The notes: generated from the letters alone by a model not told the origin. DNA of 64,000 nucleotides from an uncultured Actinomycetota bacterium (GCA_963789615.1 CAWBLI010000005.1:1693427-1757426), one strand, 5' to 3'. Counted from the stretch's first letter, positions 23,341-46,587 are shown. A program made the numbers and translations.

Positions 23341-23360
23341 TGGCTCTCCACTGCAGTTGC

Positions 23361-23385
23361 GTATCGCGAAACTCGCGCGCGATAC
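23361..23385. promoter_or_regulatory. candidate IclR operator palindrome GTATCGCG-N9-CGCGATAC
   Basis: Perfect 8-bp inverted repeat in the 156-bp divergent betA/IclR intergenic region. A related half-site pair occurs next to the second IclR gene (56258..56276). Confidence 0.35.
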
Positions 23386-23496
23386 GGAACAAGCATCGTG
23401 GTCGGCAGGACAGTGGTCAAGACGTCGGCGGGTTCTGGTCCACGGTGGGCCGGCCGAGTTGCTGCGGACATCTCGCAGAGTACGTACTGTTGCACC

Positions 23497-24318
23497 ATGA
23501 GCAACGGCCGATCGGGGCCTGACGGGGATGCGCCCACGGGGGTCGCGAAGCGCGCGCCCGGGTCGGTGCAGTCCGTCGACCGGGCGCTGCGGGTCCTCGA
23601 GATCCTCGCCGACCACGGCGCGCGAGGTGTCACCGAGATCGCCGATGAGCTCGGCGTCCACAAGTCGACGGCGTTCCGGCTGATCTCCGTGCTGGAGGAT
23701 CACCAGCTGGTCGAGCAGGTCGAGGACCGCGGCCGCTACCACCTCGGTTTCGGGATCGTCCGGCTCGCGGGCGCCACCTCGGCGCAGCTTGACCTCACCC
23801 GGCAGAGCCAGCCGGTCTGCGAGGACCTGGCGAGCGCGCTCGACGAGACGGTCAACATCGCGGTGCTCGAAGGGTCATCGGTCATCAACATCAGCCAGGC
23901 CCGTGGCGGTGCCGCGATCGCGAGCCACAACTGGGTGGGCCAGCTCACTCCCCCGCACGCCACGTCGAGCGGCAAAGTGCTGCTGGCGGCGCTGAGCGAT
24001 GCCCAGGTGTCGGCGCTGCTCCCCGACCCGCTGCGCCGCTTCACCGACGCGACGCTGACCTCGCGCACCAAGCTCCGGCAGGCGCTGCGCGAGGTGCGGG
24101 CAGAGGGGTACGGCGTGACCGAGGGCGAGCTCGAGGTCGGGCTCAACGCGGTCGCCGCGCCGGTGCACGGACCGGACGGCGAGATCATCGCGGCGCTGTC
24201 GGTGTCGGGTCCGACGTACCGGATGTCGAGTGACCTGCTCCCGGAGATCGCCAAGAGCGCCGTCGCGGCCGCGGACGAGATCAGCCGACGGCTGGGCTAC
24301 CGCGCTCCGCTGGGTTGA
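23497..24318 (+). CDS. IclR family transcriptional regulator
   Basis: 273 aa from [10 protein letters not shown]. wHTH ([42 protein letters not shown]) plus an IclR effector domain ([20 protein letters not shown]). Only the last third of track ORF 21694..24318 is real. Confidence 0.9.
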
Positions 24319-25088: not shown

Positions 25089-25153
25089 CCCACCACCACG
25101 CATGGCCCATTGATGGGGCTAGGGGACCACCAATGGGCCATGCGTGTGGTGGG
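25089..25153. repeat. hairpin repeat family 1, copy A (CACGCATGGCCCATYGRTGG core)
   Basis: CCCACCACCACGCATGGCCCATTGATGG-ggctagggga-CCACCAATGGGCCATGCGTGTGGTGGG lies between convergent stops (25088 +, 25154 -). It is near-identical in its core to 38605..38656. Confidence 0.7.
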
Positions 25154-26802: not shown

Positions 26803-26839
26803 GCTGACCTCCTGGTCGGTGCTTGACCGTCAGCGGCGG

Positions 26840-27797
26840 TTAGCCGTTGACGAGGACGTAGTTCTTGACCTTGGCCTTCTTCAAGTCCAGGGTCACCAGC
26901 GCTCCCTGCAGCACGCCTTCTTCATACGCACTGCCGGGATTGAGAGCCAGCGTGCGGCCGATCCGGACCGCCGCCCGGCTCTCGTGGATGTGCCCGTGCA
27001 GCCCGAGCAGCGGCTGCACGTCCTGGATCGCCGCGCGGATCGAGGTCGACCCGACCGGCCGCATCGCCTGGCCGCCGGCCAGGATGTTCATGTCCGCGTC
27101 GAGGGCGGGGGCCTGGTCGAGACCACTGCCGTATGGCGGGGCGTGGAAGTTGAAGATCATGCGGGTCGGGTCCTTGACCTTCGAGACGATCTCGTCGACC
27201 CGTTTGCCGAGCTCATCCTCCGGCAGCTCGCGGAAGGTGTTCCACGGGGTCGGGATTGGTCCAGCCGAGCGACACCATCTCGAATCCCTCGAGGTCCATC
27301 GGGTCGTCGCCGTTGGTCTCGACCACGCGGCCCTGCTGGTTCAGCAGGGGGTCGAGCTCGAACATGTCGTCGTTCGCCGGGCAGACGACGACGCGATGCA
27401 CCTTGTCCCGGAGCTTGTCGTCCGCCATCTGCAGCCAGCGTTCGGTCTCGTCGAGCATGACCTTCGTGAAGCGCGCGTCCTTGAGGGAGTCGTCGGCGCG
27501 CATGCCGTCGTACTCGTCCTCGGACATCCGCACCGGGTAGTAGCCCCGGTTGCGGATCTTCGCCTCCACGTCGACGACCTCGGCCTCGGTCTCGAGGACG
27601 GTGTGCCGCTCGAACATCACGGTGTCCCAGCGACCGTTGCGCTCGACGACCGGCACCATGGCCTTGCCCGTGATGTCACCACCGACGATGACGACGTCCG
27701 CTTTGTAGAACGCCCCGGCGTTGAGGAACTTGCGCCAGCAGATCTCGGAGCCGTGAATGTCGGTGACGTAGAAGATCGTCAGGGAGTTCTTCGACAC
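26840..27797 (-). pseudogene. metallophosphoesterase family protein, one frame break as assembled
   Basis: GTG start at 27797 with RBS GGGGAGG. FYVTDIHGS and VVIVGGDITGK motifs, then, after the break at ~27243 (extra c in GWTNP-ccc-), PWNTFRELPEDELGKRVDEIV..MIFNFHAPPYG..GLHGHIHES. Confidence 0.75.
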
Positions 27798-28006
27798 GGC
27801 GCACCTCCCCGGCCAACCGCACGGTTGCGTCCTGCGCAACTGGCGTCGCATGACGCGAGGGGAGAATCGCACCAGGCTCATGGCCTGTCAACGGCCAGCG
27901 CCAACCCGCGACGCCGGTTCGCCGCCGCTTGACAGCAGCGGTTCCGGCGGACACTGTTGCGCATGATGGCACGAGTCGCCCTCCACGCAACGCGATAGGC
28001 GTCACA

Positions 28007-29197
28007 ATGGAGCGACCGAGCCAGGCCGACCGAGGGATGACCAGGATGACCGCTACCGCAGGCGACGCGACGACCAGCGCGCTTCCGGACAGCCTGCTGC
28101 CGACGATGCCCGGCCACTACTACAACGACCCCGCCATCTTCGCCCTGGAGCAGGCCAAGATCTTCGAGGCGATGTGGTTCTGCGCCGTACGCAGTTCCGA
28201 CCTCATCGAAGCGGGCGAGTTCCGCACCGTGCAGGTCGGCCGCGAGTCGATCCTCGTGGTCCGCGGCTCCGACGGCGAGCTGCGTGGCTTCTTCAACGTC
28301 TGCCGGCATCGTGGCGCGCGGCTCTGCATCGAGCCGGAGGGCAAGGTACGACGGTCGATCCAGTGCACGTACCACGCCTGGACCTACGCGCTGGACGGGA
28401 AGCTCGTCGCGGCACCCAACCTCACCTCGATGCCAGACGTCGACCGGATCGGCTTCGGCCTGGTGCCGGTCCACCTCCGCGAGTGGCTCGGGTATGCCTG
28501 GGTCTGCCTCGCCGACGAGCCGCCGTCGTTCGAGGAGCAGGTCATCGGCGCGTGCACCGAGCGGCTCGGCGACCCGGCCGCGATCGACCACTACAAGATC
28601 GACTCGCTGGCGGTCGGCAAGCGGATCAGGTACGACGTGGCCGCGAACTGGAAGCTCATCATCGAGAACTTCATGGAGTGCTACCACTGCGCGACGATCC
28701 ACCCGGAGCTCACCGAGGTGCTGCCGGAGTTCGCGAACGGTTTCGCGGCGCAGTACTACGTCGGTCACGGCGCGGCGTTCGGGCCGGAGATCAAGGGCTT
28801 CACGGTCGACGGCAGTGAAGGCTTCGAGCGGATCGACGGCGTCACCGAGGAACAGGACCGCAAGTACTACGCGATCACGGTGCGGCCACAGGTGTTCATC
28901 AACCTGATCCCCGACCACGTGATCATCCACCGAATGTTCCCGATGGCCGTCGACCGCACGGTCATCGAGTGCGACTGGCTGTTCGCCCCCGACCTGCTCG
29001 CGGCGAATCCCGACCTGACCCGATCGGTCGAGCTGTTCGACCGGGTGAACCGGCAGGACTTCGACGCCTGCGAGCGGTGCCAGCCCGGGACCACGTCACG
29101 GCTCTACGCGAACGGCGGCGTGCTGGTGCCCGCCGAGCATCACATCGCCGGACTCGGCGAGTGGATCCACGACGTCCTGGGAGATGCTCTCGACTGA
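28007..29197 (+). CDS. Rieske [2Fe-2S] ring-hydroxylating-oxygenase alpha-subunit family protein (candidate glycine betaine/quaternary-amine N-demethylating monooxygenase)
   Basis: Rieske motif [17 protein letters not shown] and a mononuclear-iron region [15 protein letters not shown]. The start is uncertain (ATG 28007, 28037 or 28046; GAGGG lies 9 nt before 28046). The stop overlaps the sdaA start (TGATG). Confidence 0.8.
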
Positions 29198-30570
29198 TGG
29201 CCCTCAGCGTCTTCGACCTGTTCAGCGTCGGGATCGGGCCCTCGAGCTCCCACACCGTCGGGCCGATGCGCGCCGCCCGGCTGTTCTCCGCAGGTCTCGA
29301 CGACGACGGGCTGATGGACTCGGTCGTGCGCGTCCACGTCGAGCTGTTCGGCTCCCTCGGCGCAACCGGTCACGGTCACGGCAGCCCGCGCGCGATCGTC
29401 CTGGGGCTGCTCGGCGAGACGCCCGAGACCGTTGACCCGGCTGGCTGCGACGAGATCGTGGCGGCCGCCCGGCGTACCGGCCAGCTCGAGCTGATGGGCC
29501 ACCACGCGATCGACTTCGACCAGGACGACGACCTGGTGCTGCACCGGCGCAAGAGCCTGCCGCTGCATCCGAACGGGATGACGTTCGAGGCCTTCGACGC
29601 CGCCGGCACGTCACTGCGGCTCCGCACCTACTACTCGGTGGGTGGCGGGTTCGTCCTCGACGAGTCCGCGGCCGAGGGCGGCCGGGTGGTCGCCGACGAC
29701 ACCGTGTTGCCGTTCCCGTTCGAGACGGCCGCTGACCTGATGGCGCACTGCGAGACGACCGGGCGGCCGATCGACAGCCTGATCATGGAGAACGAGCAGC
29801 ACTGGCGCAGCGCCGAGGACGTGCATGCCGGCCTGCTGCGGCTCTGGGACGTGATGCAGGAGTGCGTCACGAACGGCACCAACCACGAGGGTGTCCTGCC
29901 GGGCGGACTGAAGGTACGCCGACGGGCGCCGGCCTTGGCGCGCGTGCTCGCCACCGAAGAAGGCTCGACCGATCCGATGCGGGCGATGGACTGGGTGAAC
30001 CTCTACGCCCTGGCCGTCAACGAGGAGAACGCCTCAGGCGGCCGAGTCGTGACCGCCCCGACGAACGGCGCCGCAGGCATCATCCCGGCGGTGCTGCACT
30101 ACTACGTCCGGTTCATCCCCGGCGCTGACCTCGATGGCGTCGTACGGTTCCTGCTGACAGCCGGCGCGATCGGCATGATCTACAAGCAGACCGCCTCGAT
30201 CTCCGGCGCCGAGGTCGGGTGCCAGGGGGAGGTCGGGTCGGCTGCGTCGATGGCAGCCGGGGCGCTGGCCGCCGTGACCGGTGGGACGCCCGCGCAGGTC
30301 GAGAACGCCGCCGAGATCGCGATGGAGCACAACCTCGGCCTGACCTGCGACCCGGTCGGCGGGCTGGTACAGATCCCGTGCATCGAGCGGAACGCGATCG
30401 GTGCGGTGAAGGCGATCAACGCGGCTCGGATGGCGCTGCGTGGTGACGGGTTGCACATCGTCAGCCTCGACCGCGTGATCAAGACGATGCGCGAGACCGG
30501 CGCCGACATGAGCGTCAAGTACAAGGAGACCGCCCGCGGCGGCCTCGCCGTCAACGTGATCGAGTGCTAA
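29197..30570 (+). CDS. sdaA: L-serine ammonia-lyase (iron-sulfur dependent, single chain)
   Basis: 457 aa from [27 protein letters not shown], with YYSVGGGFV and [31 protein letters not shown]. These are classical SdaA motifs. Confidence 0.9.
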
Positions 30571-30573
30571 CCA

Positions 30574-30637: not shown

Positions 30638-30640
30638 GGG

Positions 30641-31954
30641 TCAGCCGTTGACTCCGAAGCTACTGCTGGTGACGACCGCGCGGTTGCGGGAGAAGAAGCC
30701 GAGGTCGAGCGAGTCGCCGGTATAGGGCAACGTCACCTGCACGGGATCGGCGTCGTGATCACGCCCGGCCTCGCACGCCGTGATGAGCTCCGCCATCGCG
30801 TGACCCGCCACCGGCGCGTTCTTGAACTGGTTGCCGCTGGAGCCGATCGCCATGTAGTAGCCCGGCAGATCCGAAACGTCGTACACCGGGATCCAGTCGT
30901 CCGACACGTCGTAGAGGTCGACGACGCCTGCCATTCGAGACGGCACCTCGAGCCCCGGGATCCGGCGCGCCAACCGATAGACCTGCGCCTCCCAGTGCGA
31001 CCGCGTCACCGTGCGGTTGAAGGAGTCCGGGTCGTCGACCCAGTCGCGGTCGTCGCACTCCGGGTCCTCGCTGCCGACCAGGAGGGTGCCGCCCGACTCC
31101 GGCCGGAAGTAGATCCCCTGGTCGCCATCCGCGGTGTGGAATCCCTCGACGTCCAGGTCGACTCCGGGCGGGCCGGGTACGACGTGAACCTCGTGGCGCA
31201 TCGGGCGGGTGCGGATCTTCATCGCCTGCTCGACGCCGGCCATCCGGTTGACGACACCTGAGTAGGGTCCCGCCACGTTGACGATGATCGGCGCGTCGAT
31301 GCGGTCACCGTTGTCGAGCGTCACTCCGCGCACCCGGCTGTCGCTGCGGATCTCACGCACCTCGCGGCGGAAGACGAACCGACCGCCGGCAGCCTCGGCC
31401 GCCCGCTGCAGGTTGTGGGTCGCCAGCGCCGGGTCGCTCATGTACCCCGAGTCCGGCGTATAGATCGCGCCGTCGAGCACGGTCGTCGACGGCTCCCAGA
31501 AGCTGTCGTCCGACGGTCGCGACGGTGGCCAGAACCGGTGCGCGTCGTAGTAGGGCACCCGCCGGAGCAGGGTGTCGGTGTCCCAGTCCTCGTAGGCGAC
31601 GCCGAGCTCGTCGTACAGCTCGGTTGCTTTCAGGTACTGGCCCTCGTCGCTCTTCAACAGCACCGTGCCGCAGTTCACGTACCGGGCGATGCCGCGCTCG
31701 TCCTCGACGCCGAGGTAGTTGCCCCAGTCCTTCCAGTACGAGAAACCAGCGTGCGCCATCGCGACACCGGGCCGCGAGGAGTAGTGCGCCCGCACGCAGG
31801 CGGACGAGCTCGAGGTCGAGCCGTAGCCCGCCGCCGGGAACTTGTCGACGTTGACCGTCCGCAGCCCGCGCTTGCACAGCTCGAAGGCCACGGCCGCACC
31901 GATCACGCCGGCCCCGATGATGACCGCGTCGGCGGTCCCGCTGGTCTCAGTCAT
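30641..31954 (-). CDS. FAD-dependent oxidoreductase (DAO family; candidate sarcosine/N-methyl-amine oxidase)
   Basis: 437 aa from MTETSGTADAVIIGAGVIGAAVAFELCKRG, with a DAO-type fold throughout. It starts 2 nt after the DksA-like stop. Confidence 0.75.
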   Translation of the reverse strand: MTETSGTADAVIIGAGVIGAAVAFELCKRGLRTVNVDKFPAAGYGSTSSSSACVRAHYSSRPGVAMAHAGFSYWKDWGNYLGVEDERGIARYVNCGTVLLKSDEGQYLKATELYDELGVAYEDWDTDTLLRRVPYYDAHRFWPPSRPSDDSFWEPSTTVLDGAIYTPDSGYMSDPALATHNLQRAAEAAGGRFVFRREVREIRSDSRVRGVTLDNGDRIDAPIIVNVAGPYSGVVNRMAGVEQAMKIRTRPMRHEVHVVPGPPGVDLDVEGFHTADGDQGIYFRPESGGTLLVGSEDPECDDRDWVDDPDSFNRTVTRSHWEAQVYRLARRIPGLEVPSRMAGVVDLYDVSDDWIPVYDVSDLPGYYMAIGSSGNQFKNAPVAGHAMAELITACEAGRDHDADPVQVTLPYTGDSLDLGFFSRNRAVVTSSSFGVNG

Positions 31955-31956
31955 CG

Positions 31957-32331
31957 TCAACGCCTCCTGGTCCGGCTGCGGGTGGCGGCGCGACTGCCGC
32001 CCTGGCAGGCGAGGCACCGTACGGCGGTGGGCAGTGCCTCGAGCCGGGCCTCCCCGATCGGCTTGCCGCAGTCGTCGCAGCTGCCGTAGCTACCCTCGGC
32101 CAGCTTGGCGATGGCGCGGTTGACGACGCTGAGCTGGCCGTCGAGCTTCTCGGCCGTGACGGCGCGCTCCTCCTGCTCGGTCGCGATCGCGGTGAAGTCG
32201 CCGGCCCGCTTCCCGAAGCCGATCGCCGCCATCCCCTCCTCGCGCGGGAGGTTAAGCCGGGTGATCTGCGCGATCAGCTCGTCACGCCGACGGTCGAGCT
32301 CGGCCCGGATCTCGTCGTCCGACGCCGTCAT
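31957..32331 (-). CDS. TraR/DksA family zinc-finger protein
   Basis: 124 aa: a coiled-coil N-terminal half plus CDDCGKPIGEARLEALPTAVRCLAC (C-x2-C-x17-C-x2-C). The ATG overlaps the ferredoxin-reductase stop (ATGA). Confidence 0.8.
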   Translation of the reverse strand: MTASDDEIRAELDRRRDELIAQITRLNLPREEGMAAIGFGKRAGDFTAIATEQEERAVTAEKLDGQLSVVNRAIAKLAEGSYGSCDDCGKPIGEARLEALPTAVRCLACQGGSRAATRSRTRRR

Positions 32332-33515
32332 GCCGGCACCGGGCCATGGCGCGGGGTGAGCTGCCGGCGCAGCTTGTTGAAGGACCGGCCCGCGTTCATC
32401 GCGATCACCGCACTGACCTGGTCGCCGTGGTCGTAGACCGCGACGAAGCTCCCCGCTTCCGGGTCGCCCTCGACGACGCGGACCGGGTCGCTCGGCTCGC
32501 GGTGGCCGGCGAACTGGATCATCACGCCGTACTGGTCGGACCAGAAGTACGGGGCGCGAGGGTGGGCGAGCGCGTCGACGTCGCCGCCGAGCAGCGCAGT
32601 GATGGTGCGCGCCGGGTTCTCCAGGGCGTTGGTCCAGTGCTCGACCCGATGCGGAGCCGCGGTCCACGGTCCGGCGGGACGCGCGACGTCGCCGACCGCG
32701 GCGACGTGAGGAAATGAGGTCAGACCGTGCGCGTCGGTGACGACGCCGTTGTCGAGCTGCAGCCCGCTGCCCTCGAGCCACTCGGTCACCGGTGCCGCGC
32801 CCACCCCGACCAGGACCAGGTCGGCATCGAGCACCGAGCCGTCGCTGAGCTCGACTCCGGTGACGCGGTCGTGGCCGCGCAGGGCGGTCACGCCGACTCC
32901 GGTGCGCAGCCTGACGCCGTTCGCGGCGTGCAGGGCGGCACAGATCGCGCCCATGTCCTCACCCAGGGCCAGCGAGAGCGGGACGTCGAGCATCTCCACG
33001 ACCGTGACGTCCGCGCCCAGGGTGCGGGCCGCGCCGGCCACCTCGGAGCCGATGAAGCCGGCACCGACGACCACCAGCCGGACGCCGGGGACCAGCACAT
33101 CACGCAGCGCCAGCGCATCCTCGATGGTCCGGAGCAGATGGACCCCCGCGAGCGGGGCGGCGCCGCGCAATGCCCGCGGCCGGGAGCCGGTGGCGAGCAC
33201 GACGTGGTCGGCAACGATCTCCTCATCACCGACGAGGACGGCGCGGTCGGCGGCGCGCAGCCCGGTCGCGACCTCGCCGAGCCGGCGCTCGACGGCCAGA
33301 GTGTCGAGCTCGGTCTCGTCGGCGAGCTCGAGCTTCTCGCGACTGACCGTGCCGAGCAGGAATCCCTTGGACAGCGGCGGCCGGTCGTAGGGCAGATGCG
33401 GCTCCTCGCCGATGAGCACCAGCCGACCGTCGTACCCCTGCTCGCGCAAAGCGCGCACGGCACCGAGGCCGCCCAGCGACGCGCCGACCACGACCGCCGT
33501 CTCGCGCGCGGTCAT
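32328..33515 (-). CDS. NAD(P)/FAD-dependent ferredoxin reductase
   Basis: 395 aa with two Rossmann motifs (VVVGASLGGLGAV; VVVGAGFIGSEVAG) and the typical ferredoxin-reductase C-terminal domain (YFWSDQYG). Confidence 0.85.
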   Translation of the reverse strand: MTARETAVVVGASLGGLGAVRALREQGYDGRLVLIGEEPHLPYDRPPLSKGFLLGTVSREKLELADETELDTLAVERRLGEVATGLRAADRAVLVGDEEIVADHVVLATGSRPRALRGAAPLAGVHLLRTIEDALALRDVLVPGVRLVVVGAGFIGSEVAGAARTLGADVTVVEMLDVPLSLALGEDMGAICAALHAANGVRLRTGVGVTALRGHDRVTGVELSDGSVLDADLVLVGVGAAPVTEWLEGSGLQLDNGVVTDAHGLTSFPHVAAVGDVARPAGPWTAAPHRVEHWTNALENPARTITALLGGDVDALAHPRAPYFWSDQYGVMIQFAGHREPSDPVRVVEGDPEAGSFVAVYDHGDQVSAVIAMNAGRSFNKLRRQLTPRHGPVPA

Positions 33516-33844
33516 GCCGTCGCCCTTCGGCGGTGAACGTCCACGAAGACGGCGCCGTCACGGACCTCGACGTAGTAGGTCTTGACCGGCCGCTTGGCGG
33601 GTGGCGACGTCACCTCACCGGTCCGCAGGTCGAAGAACGACGCGTGCAACGGGCACTCGACCAGACAGCCCTCGAGGTAGCCCTCGGCGAGGGAGGCGTC
33701 CTGGTGGGTGCAGGTGTCGTCGATCGCGAACCAGCCCTCATCGGCATGGAACACCGCGACGGGATGGCCACCGATGACGACCCGCCGGGCCTCGCCGGGC
33801 GGCAGCTCGTCCGCCCCGAAGACCTCGACCATCCGCTTCTCCAC
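33512..33844 (-). CDS. Rieske-type [2Fe-2S] ferredoxin
   Basis: 110 aa with CTHQDASL..CPLHASFFDLRTGE (C-x-H..C-x2-H). It overlaps the reductase start by 4 nt. Confidence 0.85.
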   Translation of the reverse strand: MEKRMVEVFGADELPPGEARRVVIGGHPVAVFHADEGWFAIDDTCTHQDASLAEGYLEGCLVECPLHASFFDLRTGEVTSPPAKRPVKTYYVEVRDGAVFVDVHRRRATA

Positions 33845-33866
33845 CCACGCGTGCCTAGTTGTGCCT

Positions 33867-33895
33867 TACGCAACAGTTACCGTTATACGCAACAG
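33867..33895 (+). promoter_or_regulatory. two direct TACGCAACAG boxes (19-bp register) in the ferredoxin/betB divergent promoter region
   Basis: cTTACGCAACAGttaccgtTATACGCAACAGcc. The same box occurs at 23356-23364 (reverse complement), 27955-27964 (reverse complement, ATGCGCAACA), 27984-27991 and 46486-46495. Confidence 0.4.
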
Positions 33896-33998
33896 CCTGG
33901 CGCACCTGTCCCATACCGGTCAAGGTGTGAAACCCTGAGCACTGTCGCGCTGTTCAGGAACGCTGTCAGGAAACAGTACGGCCTGCCAGGAGGACCTC

Positions 33999-35469
33999 GT
34001 GTCGAGTCTGTTCATCGCCGGTCGCTGGAGGTCGTCGGCATCCGGCGCCACCGACGACGTCATCAATCCCGCGAACGGCGAGGTCATCGAGGCGGTCGAC
34101 CGAGCCGGAGCCAACGAGGTGGACCAGGCGATCGCGGCGGCGCGGTCGGCGTTCGACACCGGGCCGTGGCCGAAGACGCCGGCGGCCGAGCGAGGGAAGC
34201 TGCTCGGTCGCGTCGCCGACCTGCTCGAACGCGACCGGTCCGAGCTCGGCCGGCTGGAGACGACGGACACCGGCAAGACCGCGCGGGAGGGTCTGCTCGA
34301 CATCGACGACGTCGTGTCGGTCTTCCGCTACTACGCGGATCTCGCCGGCCACGACCTCGACCACGACGTCCTGATCCCAACCCCCGGCGTACGCAGCCGA
34401 ATCCGCCACGAACCGGTCGGCGTCTGCACCCTGATCACGCCGTGGAACTACCCGCTGCTGCAGATCTCGTGGAAGGTCGCGCCGGCGCTCGCGGCCGGCA
34501 ACACGACGATCGTGAAGCCGAGCGAGGTCACCCCGCTCACCACGATCAAGCTGGTCGGGCTGCTCGCCGAGGCCGGCGTACCCGGACGGGGTCGTCAACC
34601 TGGTCCTCGGCCCCGGCGGCGAGGTCGGGACGCCGCTGGTCACCGACCCACGGGTCGACATGGTGTCGTTCACCGGTGGCCTCGCGACCGGGCGGACCAT
34701 CATGGCCGCCGCGGCAGGCACCGTGAAGCGGATCGCGCTGGAGCTCGGCGGCAAGAACCCGAACATCGTCTTCGCCGACTCCGACTTCGAGACCGCCGTC
34801 GACCACGCGCTCACCGGTGCGTTCCTGCACTCCGGTCAGGTCTGCTCGGCCGGCTCGAGGATCATCGTCGAGCGCAGCATCCACGACGACTTCGTCGCCG
34901 AGCTCGCGCGTCGCGCCGATCGGGTACGGGTGGGCGACCCGCTCGACGAGTCGAGCGAGTGCGGGCCGCTGGTGTCGCAGGCACAGCTGGACAAGATCGA
35001 GCGGTACGTCGACATCGGCCGGTCGGAAGGTGCGCGGCTGGAGTGCGGCGGCATCCGGCCGACCGAGGGTGCGCTCGGCGATGGCTTCTTCTACCGGCCG
35101 ACGCTGTTCTCCGGCTGCGACCGGACGATGCGGATCGTGTCCGAGGAGGTCTTCGGCCCGGTGGCGACGGTCGAGGTCTTCGACACCGAGGCCGAGGCGA
35201 TCACCCTCGGCAACGACACGACGTACGGGCTCGCCGGCGCGGTCTTCACCACCGACGTCGAACGCGGCGAGCGGGTCGCGGAGGCGCTGCGACACGGGAC
35301 GGTATGGATCAACGACTATCACCCGTATCTGCCGCAGGCCGAGTGGGGCGGCATGAAGCAGTCGGGCATCGGGCGAGAGCTCGGCGTGACCGGGTTGCTG
35401 GAGTACATGGAGATCAAGCACGTCTATCGCACCCTCGAGCCGGCACCCCCGGGCTGGTTCACCGGCTAG
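33999..35469 (+). pseudogene. betB: betaine-aldehyde dehydrogenase-like aldehyde dehydrogenase, one frame break as assembled
   Basis: ALDH motifs (VCTLITPWNYPLL, ELGGKNPNIVF, catalytic SGQVCSAGSR, EEVFGPV). The break at ~34581 (extra c: AGVP-ccc-) joins ORF 33999.. to ORF 34660..35469 (..AGVPDGVVNLVLGPGGEVGTPLVTDPRVDMVSFTGG..). The betB assignment rests on context. Confidence 0.75.
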
Positions 35470-35472
35470 TCA

Positions 35473-35508
35473 TCAGCGATAGTTAAGCAATCACTTGACT
35501 ATCGCTGA
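35473..35508. promoter_or_regulatory. 11-bp perfect inverted repeat TCAGCGATAGT-N14-ACTATCGCTGA (betB terminator and/or ArsR operator)
   Basis: It lies 4 nt after the betB stop and 22 nt before the ArsR start. The AT-rich spacer and flank carry repeated TTAAGC/TTAAC half-sites. Confidence 0.4.
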
Positions 35509-38392: not shown

Positions 38393-38404
38393 GGGCGACT
38401 TCCC

Positions 38405-38656: not shown

Positions 38657-38664
38657 GGGCTAGC

Positions 38665-39375: not shown

Positions 39376-39456
39376 TTCCTACCCCCAGATCGACATGGGG
39401 CGCCGAGGATCGACCCCCCACGCGAACCATACAACCGGGGACAAGCAGCACGGATG

Positions 39457-40977
39457 TCACCGAACCGGTGGGAACCGGGCCATCTCCTCGAGATCGTTGA
39501 GATCCATGTGGTTGCGGATGTAGCGACGGGACGCGTCGTACGTCGGGGTGAAGTCCCACGGAGTCTGTACGCCGGTCCCGAGCGCCTTGCTCACGGCGAA
39601 CCGCCGCTGCTGGCTCTCCCGCACCTCACGATCAAGCGCCGCCAGATCCCATCGGGCGGCAACCTCGCGGCGGAACTCCTCCACCACCGCCAGGGACTGC
39701 GGATCGTCGACCAGGTTGACCTGCTCGTGCGGGTCGGCCACCAGGTCGAAGAGCTGGTCGGGGTCGGCAGGTGAGTGAATGAACTTCAGTCGGCCACGGC
39801 GGATCATCACAATCGGTGCAATCGCCCCCTCGGCGAGGTACTCCGCGACCGTCTCATCATGGTCGGGGACGCCGGACAGGTGCGGCAGCAGGCTACGGCC
39901 GTCGAGCGGCCCCACCACACCCGACTCGTCGCCATCGTGGGCGAGCCCGAACAACGTCGGCAACAGGTCCATGGTCGACACCGCGGTCGACACCCGGCCG
40001 GGCTCGAAGAGCCGAGGGGCGCGTACGACGAGCGGCACTCTCGCTGATCCCTCGTAGAAGCTCATCTTGTACCAAGCACCACGCTCCCCGAGCATCTCGC
40101 CGTGGTCGCTGGTCACGATGACGACGGTGTCGTCGAGCCGACCGGTCTCCCGGAGCAGGCCGATCAGCCGGGAGGTGTGGTCGTCGACGTAGGAGATCGC
40201 GCCGTAGTACGCCCGGCGTGCGGCGCGCACGTGGTCCTCGGTGATCTCGACGCCGTTCATCGCGCACACCTCGCGCAGCCGCCGCTCGTGCGGGTGCAGC
40301 GAGGCCTCGTCGTACCCGACGTCGGGCATCGGGACGTCCTCGTCGCGGTAGAGGTCCCACCACTTGCGCGGAATCGCGAACGGGTCATGCGGGTGGCTGA
40401 ACGAGACGACATAGCAAAACGGCCGCTCGTCGCCGGAGCGGATGTGGCCGAACAGCGAGCGTTCGGCCGCGAACGCGACCTCGTCGTCGAAGTCCAGCTG
40501 GTTGGACCGCACGCACGGTCCGGCGTCGATGACCGAGAGCATGTCGTGGTACCAGCTCGGCCGGTCGTGCGGGCGGTCCCAGTTCGGCGTCCAGCCGTAG
40601 TCCGCCGGGTAGATGTCCGTGGTGAGTCGTTCCTCGAAGCCATGCAGCTGGTCGGTCCCGCAGAAGTGCATCTTTCCGGAGAGCACGGTCCGGTAGCCGG
40701 CCTGTCGCAGGTAGTGCGCGAACGTCGGGATCTCCGAGGTGAACTCCGCCGCGTTGTCGTAGGCGCGGTGGCGGGACGGCAGCAGCCCGGTCATGAACGA
40801 CGCCCGTCCTGGAGAGCAGAGCGGACTGCCGGTGTACGCCGCGTCGAACACCACCCCGGACTCGGCCAGCCACGACATTGCGGGTGTCGCCACGATCGGA
40901 TTTCCGTGGAACGGCAACGCTGACGGCACCATTTGGTCCGCCATGATGATCAGGACGTCGGGCTGACGAGCAGGCAT
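39457..40977 (-). CDS. betC: choline-sulfatase
   Basis: 506 aa with the sulfatase signature SPLCSPGRASFMTG (C-x-P-x-R). Long blocks match my memory of rhizobial BetC (GKMHFCGTDQLHGFEERLTTDIYPADYGWTP; RYIRNHMDLNDLEEMARFP). Confidence 0.85.
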   Translation of the reverse strand: MPARQPDVLIIMADQMVPSALPFHGNPIVATPAMSWLAESGVVFDAAYTGSPLCSPGRASFMTGLLPSRHRAYDNAAEFTSEIPTFAHYLRQAGYRTVLSGKMHFCGTDQLHGFEERLTTDIYPADYGWTPNWDRPHDRPSWYHDMLSVIDAGPCVRSNQLDFDDEVAFAAERSLFGHIRSGDERPFCYVVSFSHPHDPFAIPRKWWDLYRDEDVPMPDVGYDEASLHPHERRLREVCAMNGVEITEDHVRAARRAYYGAISYVDDHTSRLIGLLRETGRLDDTVVIVTSDHGEMLGERGAWYKMSFYEGSARVPLVVRAPRLFEPGRVSTAVSTMDLLPTLFGLAHDGDESGVVGPLDGRSLLPHLSGVPDHDETVAEYLAEGAIAPIVMIRRGRLKFIHSPADPDQLFDLVADPHEQVNLVDDPQSLAVVEEFRREVAARWDLAALDREVRESQQRRFAVSKALGTGVQTPWDFTPTYDASRRYIRNHMDLNDLEEMARFPPVR

Positions 40978-40990
40978 TACCGGATCCTCG

Positions 40991-42856
40991 CTAGGTCCCG
41001 ACCGGGTCGGCCGGCGGCTCGCCGAGAGCCACGTCCGCCTCCGCGGCAGCGGCGGCGACCTCCAACGACGGGGTATCGGAGAGCAGCTGCTGGGTGTACT
41101 CCACTGTCGGGTTCGACAGCACCTGCGCGGTCTCGCCGAGCTCGACGATGCTGCCGTTGCTCATCACTGCGACCCGCTGCGCGATCGACCGGACCAGCGG
41201 CAGGTTGTGCGTGACGAACAGCATCGCGAGCCCAAGGTCGCGCTGCAAGTTGCCGAGCAGCTCGACGATCGCGGCCTGCACGCTGACGTCGAGCGCCGAC
41301 GTGACCTCGTCGCAGATCAGCACCGTGGGCTCGCACACCAGTGCCCGCGCGATCGCGACCCGCTGCCGCTCCCCACCGGAGAGCTGGTCGGGATAACGGT
41401 TCGCGTACGCCCCGGTCAGCGACACCCGCTCGAGCATCTCGCCCACCCGCAGGTCGGCGTCGCGGCCGCTCGCCGTTCCGAAGACCTTCAACGGCTGGGC
41501 GATCGTCTCCCCGACCGTACGGCGGGGGTTCAGCGAGCCATACGGGTTCTGGAAGATGTACTGGATCTGCCGGCGGGCGTCGTTGCTGCGGCTGCGGGCC
41601 GACGGCTGCAGCTCCTCGTTCCCCAGCTTGATCGTGCCGGTCCATCCCCGGTGCAGACCGGCGACCGACCGCGCCGTCGTCGTCTTGCCCGACCCGGACT
41701 CGCCGACCAGGGCCACGCACTCTCTCGCCGCCAGGTCCAGCGTCACCGAGTGGACGACCTCGAGCTTTCCGTACGACGCCGTGACGTTCTGCAGCCGCAG
41801 CGCCGGCATCGCGCCTTCGGCGTCGGACGGCATCTCGATCGGGTCGCCGGCGACGCCGCGCTGCTGGGTGATGACGAGCTCCGCCCGGATGCAGCGGGCC
41901 GAGTGGTCCGGGGCGATCGGGCGCAGCTCGGGCAGCGCCGCGTCGCACTCCTCGATCCGCAGGCTGCAGCGCGGCGAGAAGGCGCATCCGTTCGGTCGCT
42001 GGCCGGGAGACGGTGCGTGCCCTGGGATGCCGAGCAACATGCGGCCGCCGGTGAGCCGCGGGATCGCGCCGATCAGCCGGCGGGTGTACGGGTGACCCGA
42101 GGACTCGAACAGGTCGTCGGCATCGCCGAGCTCGACGATGCGACCGGCGTACATGACGGCGACTCGCCGGGCCAGGGTCGCGACGACGGCGAGGTCGTGG
42201 CTGACGTAGAGCGCGGCGACATCGTGCAGGGTGGCGAGCTCCCGCACCGTCGACAGCACGTGCGCCTGGGTCGTGACGTCCAGGCCCGTGGTCGGCTCAT
42301 CCAGCACGATCAGCCGCGGTCGGTTCGCGAACGCCATCGCGAGCCCGACGCGTTGCTGCTGCCCACCGGAGAGCTCATGCGGATAACGCTTGAGGAACTT
42401 CGGGTCGTCGGGCAGCGCGACCTCGCGCATCATCTCCGCGATCCGAGCCGCGTGGTCCTCACCGCCGGTGGCATGCGCCTGCAGCGCCTCGCGCAGCTGG
42501 GTACCGATCCGCAGTGCAGGGTTCAGCGACGACGCCGGGTCCTGCGGCACGTAGGAGACGACGGCCCCGCGCAGCTTGCGGCGTCGCTCGTCGTCGAGCG
42601 CGAGCACGTCCTGGTCGCCGAGCAGCACGCTGCCGCTGCTGATCCGCAGCCCGCGCCGGGCGTGGCCCAGCAGCGCAAGGCCGATGGTCGTCTTCCCGGA
42701 GCCGGACTCACCGACGACGCCCATGATCTCGCCGCGCGCGATGTCGAACGACACGTCCGTGACGACGGGCGTACCGGTCGTGTCGATCTGGATGTTGAGG
42801 TCCTGGACCGAAACGGCGAGCTCCGTCGTCGGAGCGGCCGGCGCCGGAGCGGTCAC
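40991..42856 (-). CDS. ABC transporter ATP-binding protein, duplicated ATPase (DppD/DppF-type fusion)
   Basis: 621 aa with two Walker A motifs (GESGSGKTT twice), two ABC signatures (LSGGQQQR, LSGGERQR) and oligopeptide-type C-terminal extensions. Confidence 0.9.
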   Translation of the reverse strand: MTAPAPAAPTTELAVSVQDLNIQIDTTGTPVVTDVSFDIARGEIMGVVGESGSGKTTIGLALLGHARRGLRISSGSVLLGDQDVLALDDERRRKLRGAVVSYVPQDPASSLNPALRIGTQLREALQAHATGGEDHAARIAEMMREVALPDDPKFLKRYPHELSGGQQQRVGLAMAFANRPRLIVLDEPTTGLDVTTQAHVLSTVRELATLHDVAALYVSHDLAVVATLARRVAVMYAGRIVELGDADDLFESSGHPYTRRLIGAIPRLTGGRMLLGIPGHAPSPGQRPNGCAFSPRCSLRIEECDAALPELRPIAPDHSARCIRAELVITQQRGVAGDPIEMPSDAEGAMPALRLQNVTASYGKLEVVHSVTLDLAARECVALVGESGSGKTTTARSVAGLHRGWTGTIKLGNEELQPSARSRSNDARRQIQYIFQNPYGSLNPRRTVGETIAQPLKVFGTASGRDADLRVGEMLERVSLTGAYANRYPDQLSGGERQRVAIARALVCEPTVLICDEVTSALDVSVQAAIVELLGNLQRDLGLAMLFVTHNLPLVRSIAQRVAVMSNGSIVELGETAQVLSNPTVEYTQQLLSDTPSLEVAAAAAEADVALGEPPADPVGT

Positions 42857-43758
42857 TCCTCACCTCGCGCCCGGTCGATGCCGGCGGCGGTCCGCGCGAT
42901 GCCGTCACCCATCAGGCCGGTGCCCAGCGTCAGTGCCGCGAGGGCGATGACCGGCGCGAGCACGCCCCACGGTTGCACGGCCAGCGCGACCTGGTTCTCC
43001 TGGATCATCGTGCCCCAGTTCGCGCCGTTCGGGTTCGGCGCGAGGCCAAGGAAGGCCAGCGCGGCGATGACGCCGATGGAGTAGGTCAGCCGCAGGCTCG
43101 ACTCGACCATGATCGGTCCGAGGATGTTCGGGAGCAGCTCACCGGTCAGGATCCGCCAGCGCGGCACGCCCATCGCCTCGGTGCATGCGACGAAGTCGCG
43201 TTCGACGACGGGCTGGGCCGTCCCGCGGGTAACGCGCGCCACACGCGGCATCGTGGTCAGCGCGATTGCGACGACGATCACCCAGGCGTGCGCACCGATC
43301 ACGGTGACCGCCACCAGCGCCAGCATGATCTGCGGGAACGCCATGATGACATCCATCGCGCGCATCAGGACGTCGTCGAGAGCGTTCCGGGAGTACGCCG
43401 CAATGAGGCCGATCAGGACACCGAGCACGATGCCGATGCCCGTCGCGATGATCGCCATGACCAAGATGCTGCGACCGCCGTAGAGGAACCGGCTCAGCAC
43501 ATCCTGCCCGAGATAGTCGGTGCCGAGCCGAGCAACACTGCTGGGACTGGAGTTGGGCGCGCCGATGAACGCGCTCGCGCCGTGCGGCGCCAGGTAGGGA
43601 CCGACCAGTGCTACCAGCACGAGAAGCAGGATCAGGCCGAGGCCGATGCGGGTCCGCCACAGCCGCAGCGAGCGGCGGAGCAGTGACGACGGCTTGACCG
43701 GCGGGCTGGCCAGCTCCATCCCGGCGGTGGCGACCGCGCCGCCGGTGCCCGGGTTCAC
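42853..43758 (-). CDS. ABC transporter permease (DppC/OppC-type)
   Basis: 301 aa, 6 TM helices, EAA-loop region (CTEAMGVPRWRILTGELLPN). It overlaps both neighbours by 4 nt. Confidence 0.9.
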   Translation of the reverse strand: MNPGTGGAVATAGMELASPPVKPSSLLRRSLRLWRTRIGLGLILLLVLVALVGPYLAPHGASAFIGAPNSSPSSVARLGTDYLGQDVLSRFLYGGRSILVMAIIATGIGIVLGVLIGLIAAYSRNALDDVLMRAMDVIMAFPQIMLALVAVTVIGAHAWVIVVAIALTTMPRVARVTRGTAQPVVERDFVACTEAMGVPRWRILTGELLPNILGPIMVESSLRLTYSIGVIAALAFLGLAPNPNGANWGTMIQENQVALAVQPWGVLAPVIALAALTLGTGLMGDGIARTAAGIDRARGEE

Positions 43759-44726
43759 AGCCGGGTCCTCAGTCGTGGCGTTACCAGGATGGTGGCAATG
43801 TCCGCGAGCAGGTTGAGCACGACGTACACCGTGGCGATCAGCATCGCGAGAGCCTGGACCAGCGGGATGTCATGGTTGACGACCGCGTCCTGCAGGGCAC
43901 TGCCGATCCCGGCGTAGTTGAAGACGTACTCGATGACGACGATGCCGCCGGCGAGGTAGGCGAGGCTGATGGCGATCACCTGGAAGACCGGGCCGAGCGC
44001 GTTCGGCAGCGCGTGCCGGATCAGCACGACGCGCTCCGGCAAGCCCTTGAGCCGAGCCATCTCGACGTAATCGCTCTCCAGCACCTCGATCATGGACGCG
44101 CGCATGATCCGGGCGACGTACGGCGCCACCACGATCACCAAGGTGAGGGTCGGCAGGATCAGTGCTTCCTTGTGGTCCCAGGGACGAGAGCCCGGTGGGA
44201 TCTGGCTGATCGCCGGCAGCCAGTGGAAGACCGTCGTGGAGACCAGGATGACCAGCAGAAGCGCCACCACGAACTCCGGTAACGCGGCCAGTGCCAACAG
44301 CAGCAACGAGCTCGAGGTGTCGAAGATCTTCTCGCGGCGCAGCGCCGCCCACGAGCCGATCGCCACCGACAGCGGGATCGAGATGACGGCCGCGAGGAAG
44401 ATCAGCACCCCGGAGTTCACCAGCCGGGGACCCAGCACCTTCGTCACCGGCTGCTGGGCGGCGAGCGAGATCCCGAGATTGCCGTGGAACAGCCCGCTCA
44501 GCCAGGTCCAGTACTGGTGGACGATTGATTGGCCGAGATGCAGCTGCCGGCTCAGCGCGGCCAGGCTGGCCGGGGTCGCGTTACGGCCGAGAATCGCGCG
44601 AGCCGGGTTGCCCAGCGCCTGGGTCGCACCGAAGACGAGGACCGAGACCAAGAACAGCACCAGGATGGCCAGCAGGGTGCGGCGGACGATGAACGCCGCG
44701 ATCCCGCCGGATCTGAGCCAGGTCAC
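43755..44726 (-). CDS. ABC transporter permease (DppB/OppB-type)
   Basis: 323 aa with YVEMARLKGLPERVVLIRHALPNAL, typical of DppB. Confidence 0.9.
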   Translation of the reverse strand: MTWLRSGGIAAFIVRRTLLAILVLFLVSVLVFGATQALGNPARAILGRNATPASLAALSRQLHLGQSIVHQYWTWLSGLFHGNLGISLAAQQPVTKVLGPRLVNSGVLIFLAAVISIPLSVAIGSWAALRREKIFDTSSSLLLLALAALPEFVVALLLVILVSTTVFHWLPAISQIPPGSRPWDHKEALILPTLTLVIVVAPYVARIMRASMIEVLESDYVEMARLKGLPERVVLIRHALPNALGPVFQVIAISLAYLAGGIVVIEYVFNYAGIGSALQDAVVNHDIPLVQALAMLIATVYVVLNLLADIATILVTPRLRTRL

Positions 44727-44745
44727 GGTCGTGGCCTCGCCCGCG

Positions 44746-46338
44746 TCAGGCGAACCAGATGCTGCGGAACCCGTGCCCGAAGCTGTCGAGGTTCAGCGTG
44801 CCCTTGCTGGGCACCAGACCGTGCACCTTCGATGAGTAGCCGTCGATGAGGTCGCCGAAGAACGGGATGATGTAGCCGCCGATGTCGTACTCGAGCTTCT
44901 GCATCTCCTGCTCGATCTCGATCCGCTTCGAGCTGTCGGTAGCGGCGAGCGCCTGCTGGTAGAGCGACCCGAAGTTCGAGCCGGTGCCGGACTTCGGCGG
45001 CCAGTGGGTCTCGTTGTACGGCGAGGTGGGCAACGAGCCCTGCTGCACCTGGCTGAGGTAGTTGCGGGTCCCCCAGAAGTCGATCGAGAACGCGAGCTTG
45101 AGGTACTGGCTGCCGTAGTAGTTGGGGTCGTTGTGGACGTTGATCGTGACCCCGGCCGCCTTCGCCTGCGACGCGAACACGTCCGCGGTCTCCACCATGC
45201 CCGCCGCACCGTTGGTGGTGTGCAGGTCGACCGTCAGCCCGGCGTGGCCGGCCTGCTTGAGCAGCGACTTGGCCTGGTCGATGTCCTGGGTCCGCTGGGG
45301 CAGCGAGTGGTCGTAGCCCGCGTCGAAGGGCGCATAAAGGTCGTTGCCGACGAAACCGTAGCCAGAGGCGACCTGCTCGATCATCTGCGGCCGGTCGACG
45401 ATCAAGCGCATGGCCTGCCGAACCCGGACATCGTCGAACGGCGGCATGTCGATGGCCATACAGAGCGGCAGCCAGCCGCCGGTCTTGGAGATCAGTGCCT
45501 TCTGGCCGTGGCTCTGCGCGATCTTGACCTGCGCCGCGGGAAGATCCGTGATCGCGTCGACCGAGCCGCCGAACAGCGCGTTCGCCTGGGCGGTCGAGGA
45601 GCTGAAGTCGATGATCGTCACCTGGTCGAACCAGGGCTGCCCGCCGCCCCGCCAGTAGTTCGGGTTGCGCGTGTGGACGCTCTGCTGGCCCGGCGTGAAG
45701 CTCTTCAGCTTGTAGGCCCCGGTCCCGATCTGTGCGTGCGGATAGGCCTGGTAGCCGGTCGGCACGATGCCGAAGGTGTAGCCCGCAAGCGTGTCGGGGA
45801 TCGTGGAGTCCGGGGATTTCAGTGGCAGCCGGACCGTGTACTTGTCCATCTTCTTGATGTTCGCGATGTCCATCGTGGCCGTCGAGGCGAACCCGGTGAG
45901 GCCGTTGCGCTTCGTCCCGATCCGCTGGAAGGAGTAGATGACGTCGTCCGCCGTCATCGTCTTGCCGTTCTGGAACTCGACACCCTGCCGCAGCTCGATC
46001 GTGTACTGCTTCGGGTTGTCCTGGGTCACGTGCGTGGCGAGCCCGGTCTCCTGCAGCTGGTAGTTCTCGTCGTACTCCAGCAGGGTCTCAAAGGCGGTCA
46101 CCAGCCGCGCCTGGTCGGGCTTGGTGATGATGTCCTGCCCGTCCATGATGTCCTTGGACCCGCCGCCGGTGACCCCGAGGCGGAAGTTGCCGCCGGCCTT
46201 AGGGGTGCCGGCCGCCGCCGAGGTGCTGGTGCTCGGCGACGAACCGGAGCTCGAGCTCCCGCACGCGGCCGCCAGGCCCCCGAGGACCGCCACGCCCGCG
46301 GCGCCGGTGAAGAACTGACGCCTGCTGACATCCGTCAT
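44746..46338 (-). CDS. ABC transporter substrate-binding lipoprotein, family 5 (peptide/nickel-type), Tat signal
   Basis: 530 aa from MTDVSRRQFFTGAAGVAVLGGLAAC (twin-arginine motif plus lipobox). A family-5 SBP fold is evident throughout. The upstream 569 aa of track ORF 44746..48045 are antisense to the serine hydrolase and MFS genes and are rejected. Confidence 0.9.
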   Translation of the reverse strand: MTDVSRRQFFTGAAGVAVLGGLAAACGSSSSGSSPSTSTSAAAGTPKAGGNFRLGVTGGGSKDIMDGQDIITKPDQARLVTAFETLLEYDENYQLQETGLATHVTQDNPKQYTIELRQGVEFQNGKTMTADDVIYSFQRIGTKRNGLTGFASTATMDIANIKKMDKYTVRLPLKSPDSTIPDTLAGYTFGIVPTGYQAYPHAQIGTGAYKLKSFTPGQQSVHTRNPNYWRGGGQPWFDQVTIIDFSSSTAQANALFGGSVDAITDLPAAQVKIAQSHGQKALISKTGGWLPLCMAIDMPPFDDVRVRQAMRLIVDRPQMIEQVASGYGFVGNDLYAPFDAGYDHSLPQRTQDIDQAKSLLKQAGHAGLTVDLHTTNGAAGMVETADVFASQAKAAGVTINVHNDPNYYGSQYLKLAFSIDFWGTRNYLSQVQQGSLPTSPYNETHWPPKSGTGSNFGSLYQQALAATDSSKRIEIEQEMQKLEYDIGGYIIPFFGDLIDGYSSKVHGLVPSKGTLNLDSFGHGFRSIWFA

Positions 46339-46587
46339 GTGAAGACCCTTCTGTTCGCCCGGCGCGCACCACTCGCAGCATCCACCATCCGAGCCGCCAG
46401 GGCCGGGAAGTTCGCGCGATTCCTCACGCGGACTTCCCCTTCTCGGCGAGCGAGTGGCGTTGCAGTCCGCGAACCTAGTCGCGGGATACGCAACATTGAC
46501 CCGTAGGCCGAGGACTGTCAACCTCTTCCGCGAAGGTGCTTCCGGGTTGTTACCTGAAGGCATGGGACGAGTACGGACGGACAGGGC

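Follow-up and report, generated by a model that had tools for sequence, protein, structure and literature searches.

A conserved palindromic operator for a predicted IclR-type regulon of choline and betaine catabolism in Actinobacteria

Glycine betaine and choline are major soil osmolytes and sources of carbon and nitrogen, and regulators of their catabolism are known in Proteobacteria, where they include BetI, GbdR, CdhR and SouR. BetI, a TetR-type protein of betIBA and betT, is an autoregulated choline-responsive repressor that acts at divergent promoters and is relieved by a pathway compound, and the AraC-type activators GbdR, CdhR and SouR of Pseudomonas govern the catabolism of betaine, carnitine and sarcosine. 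Within the IclR family, the tetrameric TtgV of Pseudomonas putida (PDB 2XRN/2XRO) covers an operator of about 40 bp, which consists of two repeats and overlaps the –10 elements of divergent promoters, and it is released by its effector. Here we have analysed a stretch of 64,000 nucleotides from an uncultured Actinomycetota bacterium (GCA_963789615.1 CAWBLI010000005.1:1693427-1757426), in the following termed the window, which contains choline and betaine genes around a gene encoding an IclR-family regulator that we refer to as IclR1. An initial annotation had described a 9–10-mer box shared by four promoter regions of these genes. Our comparison of sequences suggests, with good probability, that this repeated box is the half-site of a transcription-factor operator, with the adjacent IclR1 as its most probable binder.

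The predicted system resembles the described regulators in different respects. IclR1 belongs to the same family as TtgV and the mechanism of the latter corresponds to the one proposed here, with tetrameric binding of IclR1 being a prediction; the similarity between both proteins is at the family level only (E = 5.7e-17), and operator sequence and regulon differ, with TtgV controlling a solvent efflux pump and IclR1 putatively controlling quaternary-amine catabolism. The role of BetI is analogous, although its protein family is unrelated and it serves betaine synthesis only, whereas the predicted regulon of IclR1 includes the breakdown of betaine, dimethylglycine and sarcosine and the uptake of choline sulfate. 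GbdR, CdhR and SouR act on the same pathway, with its gbcAB-type Rieske oxygenase and its dimethylglycine and sarcosine steps, but they are AraC-type activators with unrelated sites, unlike IclR1, which is a putative repressor and is accompanied by a second IclR protein in a carnitine-type cluster.

The coordinates reported for the box were all confirmed on inspection of the window. The 8-mer TACGCAAC matches at 23356–23363 on the minus strand and at 33867–33874, 33886–33893 and 46487–46494 on the plus strand, with the copies at 33867 and 33886 being separated by 19 bp, and related sequences are found with ATGCGCAACA at 27955–27964 on the minus strand, cACGCAAC at 27984–27991 and GTTGCGTCCTGCGCAAC at 27824–27840. 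Taken on its own, the 8-mer is in marginal excess, with four matches compared to 0.81 expected and four or more matches in 2 of 100 shuffled sequences, as might be found if its recurrence reflected a chance similarity between the few AT-richer intergenic stretches. These stretches are indeed locally less GC-rich (0.61–0.64 vs. 0.695 in the entire window), in line with the initial annotation. When the four regions are read together, (A)TACGCAAC(A) emerges as the right half-site of a 17-bp palindrome with the sequence GTTGCG-N5-CGCAAC. The recurrence of the box is thus real, but the 9–10-mer as originally defined encompasses a half-site only. Allowing for up to one mismatch, the palindrome is found four times in the window compared to 0.33 matches expected, a number that is reached in none of 100 shuffles, and the four matches, which start at 23356, 27824, 33858 and 46478, are all intergenic and distribute with one copy to each promoter region. 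At up to three mismatches, the count in the window equals background, with the signal being confined to good sites. A position weight matrix (PWM) constructed from orthologous sites and applied with a threshold of at least 12 bits detects seven matches in the window compared to 0.27 in shuffled sequences, six of which are non-coding. The operator sites score between 12 and 23 bits, and the sole further match, GTTGCGGATGTAGCGAC at 39511–39527 with 12.6 bits, is located within the coding sequence of betC and is probably due to chance.

Beyond the features initially described, the boxes are half-sites of 17-bp palindromes that pair into larger operators, and a further site is located at the start codon of IclR1 (Table 1). 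At four promoters, two 17-mers placed 18–19 bp apart form a composite operator with a total length of 35–36 bp. The outer half-sites GTTGCG and CGCAAC are its best conserved parts and the inner half-sites are degenerate. The resulting outer pattern GTTGCG-N23/24-CGCAAC, with half-sites 29–30 bp apart from start to start, is present in all four regions of the window.

Table 1. Predicted operators, the regulator and its putative target genes in the window. Positions are counted from the first nucleotide of the window.
Feature	Position	Strand	Sequence or location	Evidence
Composite operator A	23356..23390		17-mers 23356-23372 (GTTGCGTATCGCGAAAC) and 23374-23390 (CGCGCGCGATACGGAAC); 16-50 bp upstream of betA ATG	PWM 20.1 bits
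Inferred betA promoter	23391..23420	-	TTGACC (23420..23415)-18-ATGCTT (23396..23391); abuts operator A	Read by eye
Single palindrome, putatively autoregulatory	23489..23505		GTTGCACCATGAGCAAC; overlaps IclR1 ATG (23497) and -10-like hexamer TACTGT (23485-23490)	PWM 16.6 bits
Operator B1, single perfect palindrome	27824..27840		GTTGCGTCCTGCGCAAC; 27-43 bp upstream of metallophosphoesterase GTG (27797)	PWM 22.7 bits, highest in window
Composite operator B2/B3	27956..27991		GTTGCG-N24-CGCAAC, outer half-sites perfect; 55-90 bp upstream of Rieske oxygenase ATG	Sequence
Composite operator C	33858..33893		GTTGTGCCTTACGCAAC, then TTACCGTTATACGCAAC 19 bp on; 14-49 bp upstream of ferredoxin GTG and 106-141 bp upstream of divergent betB	PWM 20.6 bits
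Composite operator D	46459..46494		GTTGCAGTCCGCGAACC, then GTCGCGGGATACGCAAC; 121-156 bp upstream of SBP ATG (46338)	PWM 15.9 bits
Predicted target operon 1	17395..23340	-	betA, dimethylglycine-dehydrogenase-type gene, electron-transfer flavoprotein (ETF) beta, ETF alpha	
betA, choline dehydrogenase	21664-23340	-		NCBIfam betA 827 bits (cut-off 732)
Dimethylglycine-dehydrogenase-type enzyme	19145-21667	-		Pfam DAO/FAO_M/GCV_T
ETF beta	18369-19133	-		Pfam ETF
ETF alpha	17395-18255	-		Pfam ETF
IclR-family regulator IclR1	23497..24318	+		Pfam HTH_IclR, IclR_C
Amino-acid-type permease	25119-26702			Pfam/NCBIfam
Metallophosphoesterase, predicted target	26840..27797	-	Frameshifted near 27240	
Predicted target operon, oxygenase	28046..30570	+	Rieske oxygenase 28046-29197, L-serine dehydratase 29197-30570	Pfam
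Predicted target operon, ferredoxin	30641..33844	-	Rieske ferredoxin 33512-33844, ferredoxin reductase 32328-33515, DksA/TraR zinc-finger protein 31957-32331, DAO-family oxidase 30641-32017	Pfam
betB-type aldehyde dehydrogenase, possible target	33999..35486	+	Divergent from operator C	Pfam Aldedh
Predicted target operon, SBP-betC	39457..46338	-	Family-5 solute-binding lipoprotein (SBP) 44746-46338, two permeases, fused ATPase 40991-42856, choline sulfatase betC 39457-40977	Pfam
Beta-lactamase-family serine hydrolase, possible target	46588..47709	+	Divergent from SBP operon	Pfam Beta-lactamase

The distribution of these sites in other actinobacteria was characterized in loci selected by alignment of IclR1, which, with one genome per species, provided 80 loci with 54–62% identity of the regulator (L006–L085) from Streptomyces, Geodermatophilus, Blastococcus, Actinoplanes, Pseudonocardia, Kutzneria, Actinophytocola, Nonomuraea and Mycolicibacterium. 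In about 65 of these 80, the IclR1 orthologue resides beside Rieske ferredoxin, reductase and oxygenase genes and/or betA and betB. Sites were counted in these loci together with those of closer relatives, resulting in 82 IclR-centred loci after removal of duplicate contigs, amounting to 1.64 Mb in windows of about 20 kb, of which 12.5% are non-coding according to a mask based on gene calls with a codon-usage start chooser. Perfect palindromes occur 26 times in non-coding and twice in coding sequence, and with up to one mismatch the numbers increase to 94 and 9, respectively, equivalent to an about 65-fold difference in density, whereas twelve control palindromes with permuted half-sites yielded between zero and three non-coding matches each. 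A spacing of 19 bp between neighbouring sites was counted 65 times, with the runner-up spacing accounting for six. The genes downstream of strong sites encode IclR (31 loci), Rieske ferredoxin (23), BetA (21) and dimethylglycine dehydrogenase (DMGDH)-type enzymes (20), besides reductase, BetB, PurU, formate-tetrahydrofolate ligase, SDH and permease. In 22 of 28 loci, betA has a palindrome in the 300 bp that precede it, with corresponding counts of 58 of 82 for the IclR gene and 47 of 59 for the Rieske ferredoxin gene, compared to 3.3% of random 320-bp windows. The box is thus conserved in orthologous promoters across genera, and the motif displays the hallmarks of a transcription-factor operator, namely its enrichment in non-coding DNA and its fixed positions before orthologous genes in different genera. 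Together with the fixed spacing, this conservation refutes a chance similarity of AT-richer stretches, which we consider to be extremely improbable despite the marginal count of the bare 8-mer.

The same arrangement is found in closer relatives. In the metagenomic locus L001, whose IclR protein is 90% identical, the betA–IclR intergenic region contains the same operator A with a perfect CGCAAC as distal half-site. Three loci with 69% identity (L003–L005) show a different gene order, with the IclR gene immediately preceding that of the Rieske oxygenase and neighbouring the genes for DMGDH and ETF. In one of them, L004, the ferredoxin operon is preceded by GTTGTG-N5-CGCAAC and a second CGCAAC 19 bp on, which is the same GTTGTG variant as found in operator C, and the orthologous oxygenase gene carries GTTGCG...CGCAAC with 30 bp from start to start in its upstream region, in exact match to the window. 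Next to the ferredoxin-operon operator of this locus, at 16890–16960, an intergenic tandem repeat of GGAGGTCTTCAGGAGC with about four copies was observed, which is absent from the window. The site at the start codon of the regulator is kept as GTTxCGnnATGAGCAAC in many orthologous loci.

The proposal that a single regulator coordinates these operons, and that the IclR at 23497 is the candidate, has gained support from the comparison, in which the same palindrome precedes orthologous genes in synteny with IclR1 and the operator is found along with the IclR1 orthologues. It retains its location in several different gene orders, and in Streptomyces loci without adjacent catabolic genes a composite operator is still located just upstream of the IclR1 orthologue. 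Additionally, in L107, a locus from a set that was selected through the SBP, an IclR1-type gene encoding the same type of recognition helix resides directly upstream of an SBP–betC operon with a perfect operator. This ten-residue recognition helix is invariant among IclR1 orthologues, which fits the invariant operator motif.

IclR1 contains an N-terminal winged helix-turn-helix (PF09339 HTH_IclR, residues 26–75, E = 3.1e-16) and an effector-binding domain (PF01614 IclR_C, residues 97–264, E = 1.2e-40), and it aligns over its full length to IclR proteins of known structure. Its closest relatives are metagenomic, with 100% identity in a JGI contig and 90% in the ENA metagenome contig L001, and identity to GTDB representatives never exceeds 62%. 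The protein scores below the cut-off of every curated NCBIfam subfamily (PcaR-PcaU, 142.8 bits vs. 284.75; KdgR, 139.5 vs. 275; IclR, 127.7 vs. 380; AllR, 114.6 vs. 406). The best of these models is BhcR, the IclR-family regulator of the beta-hydroxyaspartate cycle, which aligns over the full length, but with 189.7 bits at a cut-off of 350 and a different gene context IclR1 is not its equivalog. Some IclR1 orthologues are named 'glycerol operon regulatory protein' in UniRef. An assignment as GylR-type glycerol regulator, which would imply linkage to genes for glycerol kinase, facilitator and G3P dehydrogenase, finds no support in the gene context, with choline and betaine genes surrounding the gene in the window and in the orthologous loci described above and no glycerol genes in the gene listings of L001 and L003–L005. 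An identity as BetI was dismissed, as the protein is of the IclR type and a Pfam scan gave no match to TetR_N.

The operator could alternatively be bound by another factor, either the second IclR protein of the window (IclR2, 56316–57140) or one encoded elsewhere, with IclR1 being a co-regulated passenger. In many metagenomic loci, IclR2 orthologues with 65–84% identity are found within a few kb of the SBP–betC operon, five of which also carry a GTTGCG...CGCAAC operator, and the IclR-centred loci would be compatible with an unlinked factor. Nevertheless, the recognition helix of IclR2 differs (GINRATAWRL), the gene is part of a carnitine-type cluster and lacks an IclR1-type site in its upstream region, and the region upstream of the SBP gene is devoid of the operator in five or more loci that encode an IclR2 orthologue (L129, L153, L155, L160, L162). 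Conversely, IclR1 orthologues are associated with the operator in whatever gene context they occur, orphan genes included. We thus regard binding by another factor as quite unlikely, and in case of IclR2 the helix, the gene context and the loci without operator argue against its binding to site D. IclR2 is 37% identical to IclR1 and resides in a carnitine-catabolism-like cluster (53742–59645) that contains a BKACE protein (57408–58208), a 3-hydroxyacyl-CoA dehydrogenase-thioesterase fusion (58449–59645), a thioesterase, an acyl-CoA dehydrogenase and an enoyl-CoA hydratase, and its gene is preceded by a direct repeat GTGCGACGA...GTGCGACGA at 56236–56273. IclR2 probably serves a carnitine-to-betaine module as a regulator in its own right.

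In the upstream regions of orthologous SBP genes, the 17-mer PWM found matches in only 13 of 64 loci. Inspection showed outer half-sites that are conserved at a spacing of 30–31 bp and inner ones that differ. Alignment by eye revealed a conserved layout consisting of TTGACA, 17–18 nt, a TACTAA-like hexamer and GTTGCG...CTGCGG...CCGCAG...CGCAAC, and about 20 orthologous SBP operons contain perfect outer half-sites 30–31 bp apart. In other soil lineages, the SBP–betC locus contains a different perfect palindrome, GTTCA-N5-TGAAC, which either precedes the SBP gene or is close to a gene for an IclR-like protein (L093, L098–L100, L102, L106, L108, L111, L128, L133, L135, L136, L140, L157). Among the loci inspected, it precedes the SBP gene in L099, L100, L106, L128, L133 and L135, and a second copy just downstream of a third IclR-like gene, whose product is 46–50% identical to IclR2, is present in L099, L106, L133, L135 and L136. 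The commonest version of this palindrome, GTTCATATCGTGAAC, has no match in the window at up to three mismatches. Site D is thus a real site kept in a subset of lineages, with the membership of the choline-sulfate operon in the regulon being lineage-specific, and different lineages seem to have placed the SBP–betC operon under different IclR paralogues.

The position of the operators relative to promoter-like elements offers a view on the mode of action. On the transcribed strand of four promoters in the window, a TTGACx hexamer and a second hexamer are separated by 18 nt, and the operator comes next, either directly or with an overlap of 3 bp. Operator B2/B3 overlaps by 3 bp with the end of TTGACA (27929–27934)-18-ACTGTT, operator C abuts TTGACC (33923..33918)-18-CAGGCT, and operator D follows TTGACA (46521..46516)-18-AATGTT on the minus strand, with a TTGACC at 46496–46501 located directly after it on the side of the serine hydrolase. 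The single palindrome B1 is placed about 22 bp downstream of TTGACA (27891..27886)-17-GATTCT. A corresponding consensus in Streptomyces displays TAACAT, 3 nt and the operator on one side and, with respect to the reverse strand, the operator, GATTCT, 18 nt and TTGACG on the other. Operators that directly follow or overlap promoter-like elements favour repression, either by occlusion or as roadblock, and IclR1 thus most likely acts as repressor and autorepressor.

In the proposed mechanism, a dimer of IclR1 would bind to each 17-bp palindrome and the two palindromes of a composite operator would recruit a cooperative dimer of dimers. The near-invariant outer and degenerate inner half-sites are as expected for this kind of tetrameric binding, and the tandem palindromes agree with the palindromic or repeated operators that IclR-family proteins bind as dimers or tetramers. 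Bound IclR1 would block RNA polymerase at the promoters, including that of its own gene, and would be released by a metabolite of the pathway, which could be choline, glycine betaine or a product of its demethylation. Choline and glycine betaine are natural guesses for the effector, since the regulon includes steps that lead to betaine as well as steps that consume it. In the window, it would comprise the uptake and hydrolysis of choline-O-sulfate by the SBP, its ABC transporter and BetC, the oxidation of choline by BetA and possibly BetB, the demethylation of betaine by the Rieske oxygenase with ferredoxin and reductase, the oxidation of dimethylglycine and sarcosine by the DMGDH-type enzyme, ETF and the DAO oxidase and, additionally, the serine dehydratase and a metallophosphoesterase.

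As the sites appear downstream of promoter-like elements, and would hence be transcribed, and as GTTGCG-N5-CGCAAC could form a 6-bp stem, the inverted repeats might instead be RNA hairpins in 5' untranslated regions that serve as attenuators or bind proteins. This is highly improbable given that the sequence of the half-sites is conserved and not just their pairing, with 6 of 161 double-mismatch sites having mirror-positioned changes, three of which are compensatory. Moreover, a single operator is used in both orientations by divergent genes, the outer half-sites at a distance of 30 bp flank inner parts that are not complementary, and the sequences have no match in Rfam.

Several points weigh against a DNA operator that is bound by IclR1 as repressor, starting with the fact that the case as a whole is built on comparison of sequences. 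Since L006–L085 were chosen through the IclR gene, its co-occurrence with the operator is partly by construction, and independent support is confined to the orphan IclR loci, the differing gene orders and L107. The conservation of the site at the start codon of IclR1 may partly be coding, since ATGAGCAAC encodes Met-Ser-Asn. Of 62 orthologous Rieske oxygenase genes, only 10 are directly preceded by a site, and many of these genes appear to be located inside operons. Operator D is the weakest of the operators (15.9 bits), and it is missing from many orthologous SBP operons, which have another palindrome instead. The –35 and –10 elements were assigned by eye, with several of the –10 hexamers being poor (CAGGCT, ATGCTT, AATGTT); a scan for E. 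coli-type promoters detected none in the four regions and an equivalent scan for terminators was equally negative, both being uninformative for an actinomycete with 70% GC. The centre-to-centre spacing of 19 bp does not correspond to an integral number of helical turns, and the geometry of the tetramer is thus a conjecture. Finally, the sign of regulation is uncertain, as many catabolic IclR proteins are activators, including PcaU and PobR.

IclR1 might thus bind to the operator as activator or dual regulator, in the manner of PcaU and PobR. The PcaU site consists of a palindrome and a direct repeat of its half-site over about 45 bp, a layout that is similar to operator C, and for betB and the serine hydrolase the operator is placed upstream of the candidate –35 element. 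PcaU, PobR and PcaR, which regulate the catabolism of aromatic compounds, are members of the same family and mainly activators, but ligands and regulon differ and, as judged from its NCBIfam score, IclR1 is not a member of their group. At betA and the ferredoxin, oxygenase and SBP genes, the operator resides between a –10-like hexamer and the start codon, which in case of betA and the ferredoxin gene it approaches to within 14–16 bp, and one site even overlaps with the start codon of the regulator itself. With these positions, activation by IclR1 is unlikely and repression remains the preferred mode.

The functional labels of the genes in the initial annotation were essentially right, as judged from Pfam and NCBIfam. 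The best NCBIfam match of the Rieske oxygenase is the glycine-betaine monooxygenase GbcA, with a score of 216 bits that is below the cut-off of 670. The gene order of operon 1 is also present in L001, that of the ferredoxin operon is the same in L003–L005, including the small gene for a DksA/TraR C4 zinc-finger protein (14933–15277 in L004) kept inside the Rieske ferredoxin-reductase-oxidase operon, and that of the SBP–betC operon is kept in L086–L165. The N-terminus of the SBP contains a visible Tat signal and lipobox, and the divergent pairing of its gene with the serine hydrolase is kept in many loci. Directly after the IclR1 gene, and overlapping or abutting its stop codon, an open reading frame of about 252 residues (24315–25088) without significant family match is 86% conserved in L001 (10867–11625).

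Single frameshifts split at least four genes, which are betB, the permease at 25119–26702, the metallophosphoesterase and an acyl-CoA dehydrogenase (54541–55706). In betB, the Aldedh domain is distributed over two frames with a shift near 34580, which tblastn with an intact orthologue placed at residues 194/195 and which coincides with an extra G in CCCGGAC. In the metallophosphoesterase, a DxH/GDxxG-type N-terminus and a Metallophos_2-like C-terminus are found in different frames. Four frameshifted genes within 64 kb are more suggestive of indels introduced during assembly than of true pseudogenes. Further phosphoesterases surround the cluster at 13896–15245, 15673–17211 and 48926–50563, one of which combines fn3 and Exo_endo_phos domains with the other two being calcineurin-like metallophosphoesterases. 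None of them contains an operator upstream, and they may liberate choline from phospho-esters.

No description of this actinobacterial regulator was found in the full-text literature, a search whose coverage excludes subscription journals. We consider the system as a well-supported predicted new regulon of an ordinary kind, with a local repressor and a palindromic operator, and not as a new mechanism. With moderate confidence, we would extend this view to IclR1 as an unnamed master repressor of quaternary-amine catabolism across Actinobacteria, which would govern the utilization of choline, choline-O-sulfate, glycine betaine and dimethylglycine and the linked one-carbon and folate metabolism from an unusual operator with a length of 36 bp and two palindromes spaced by 19 bp, with the choline-sulfate operon having been rewired in different soil lineages between IclR1 and other IclR paralogues that would recognize the related but distinct GTTCA-N5-TGAAC. 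The conservation of operator and candidate regulator from Streptomyces to Geodermatophilus, Pseudonocardia and Mycolicibacterium would permit the prediction of the regulon on a genome-wide level. It would also provide a functional name for a widespread IclR protein that is now either unnamed or mislabelled as 'glycerol operon regulator', and a candidate for a betaine- or choline-responsive switch in the engineering of Streptomyces.

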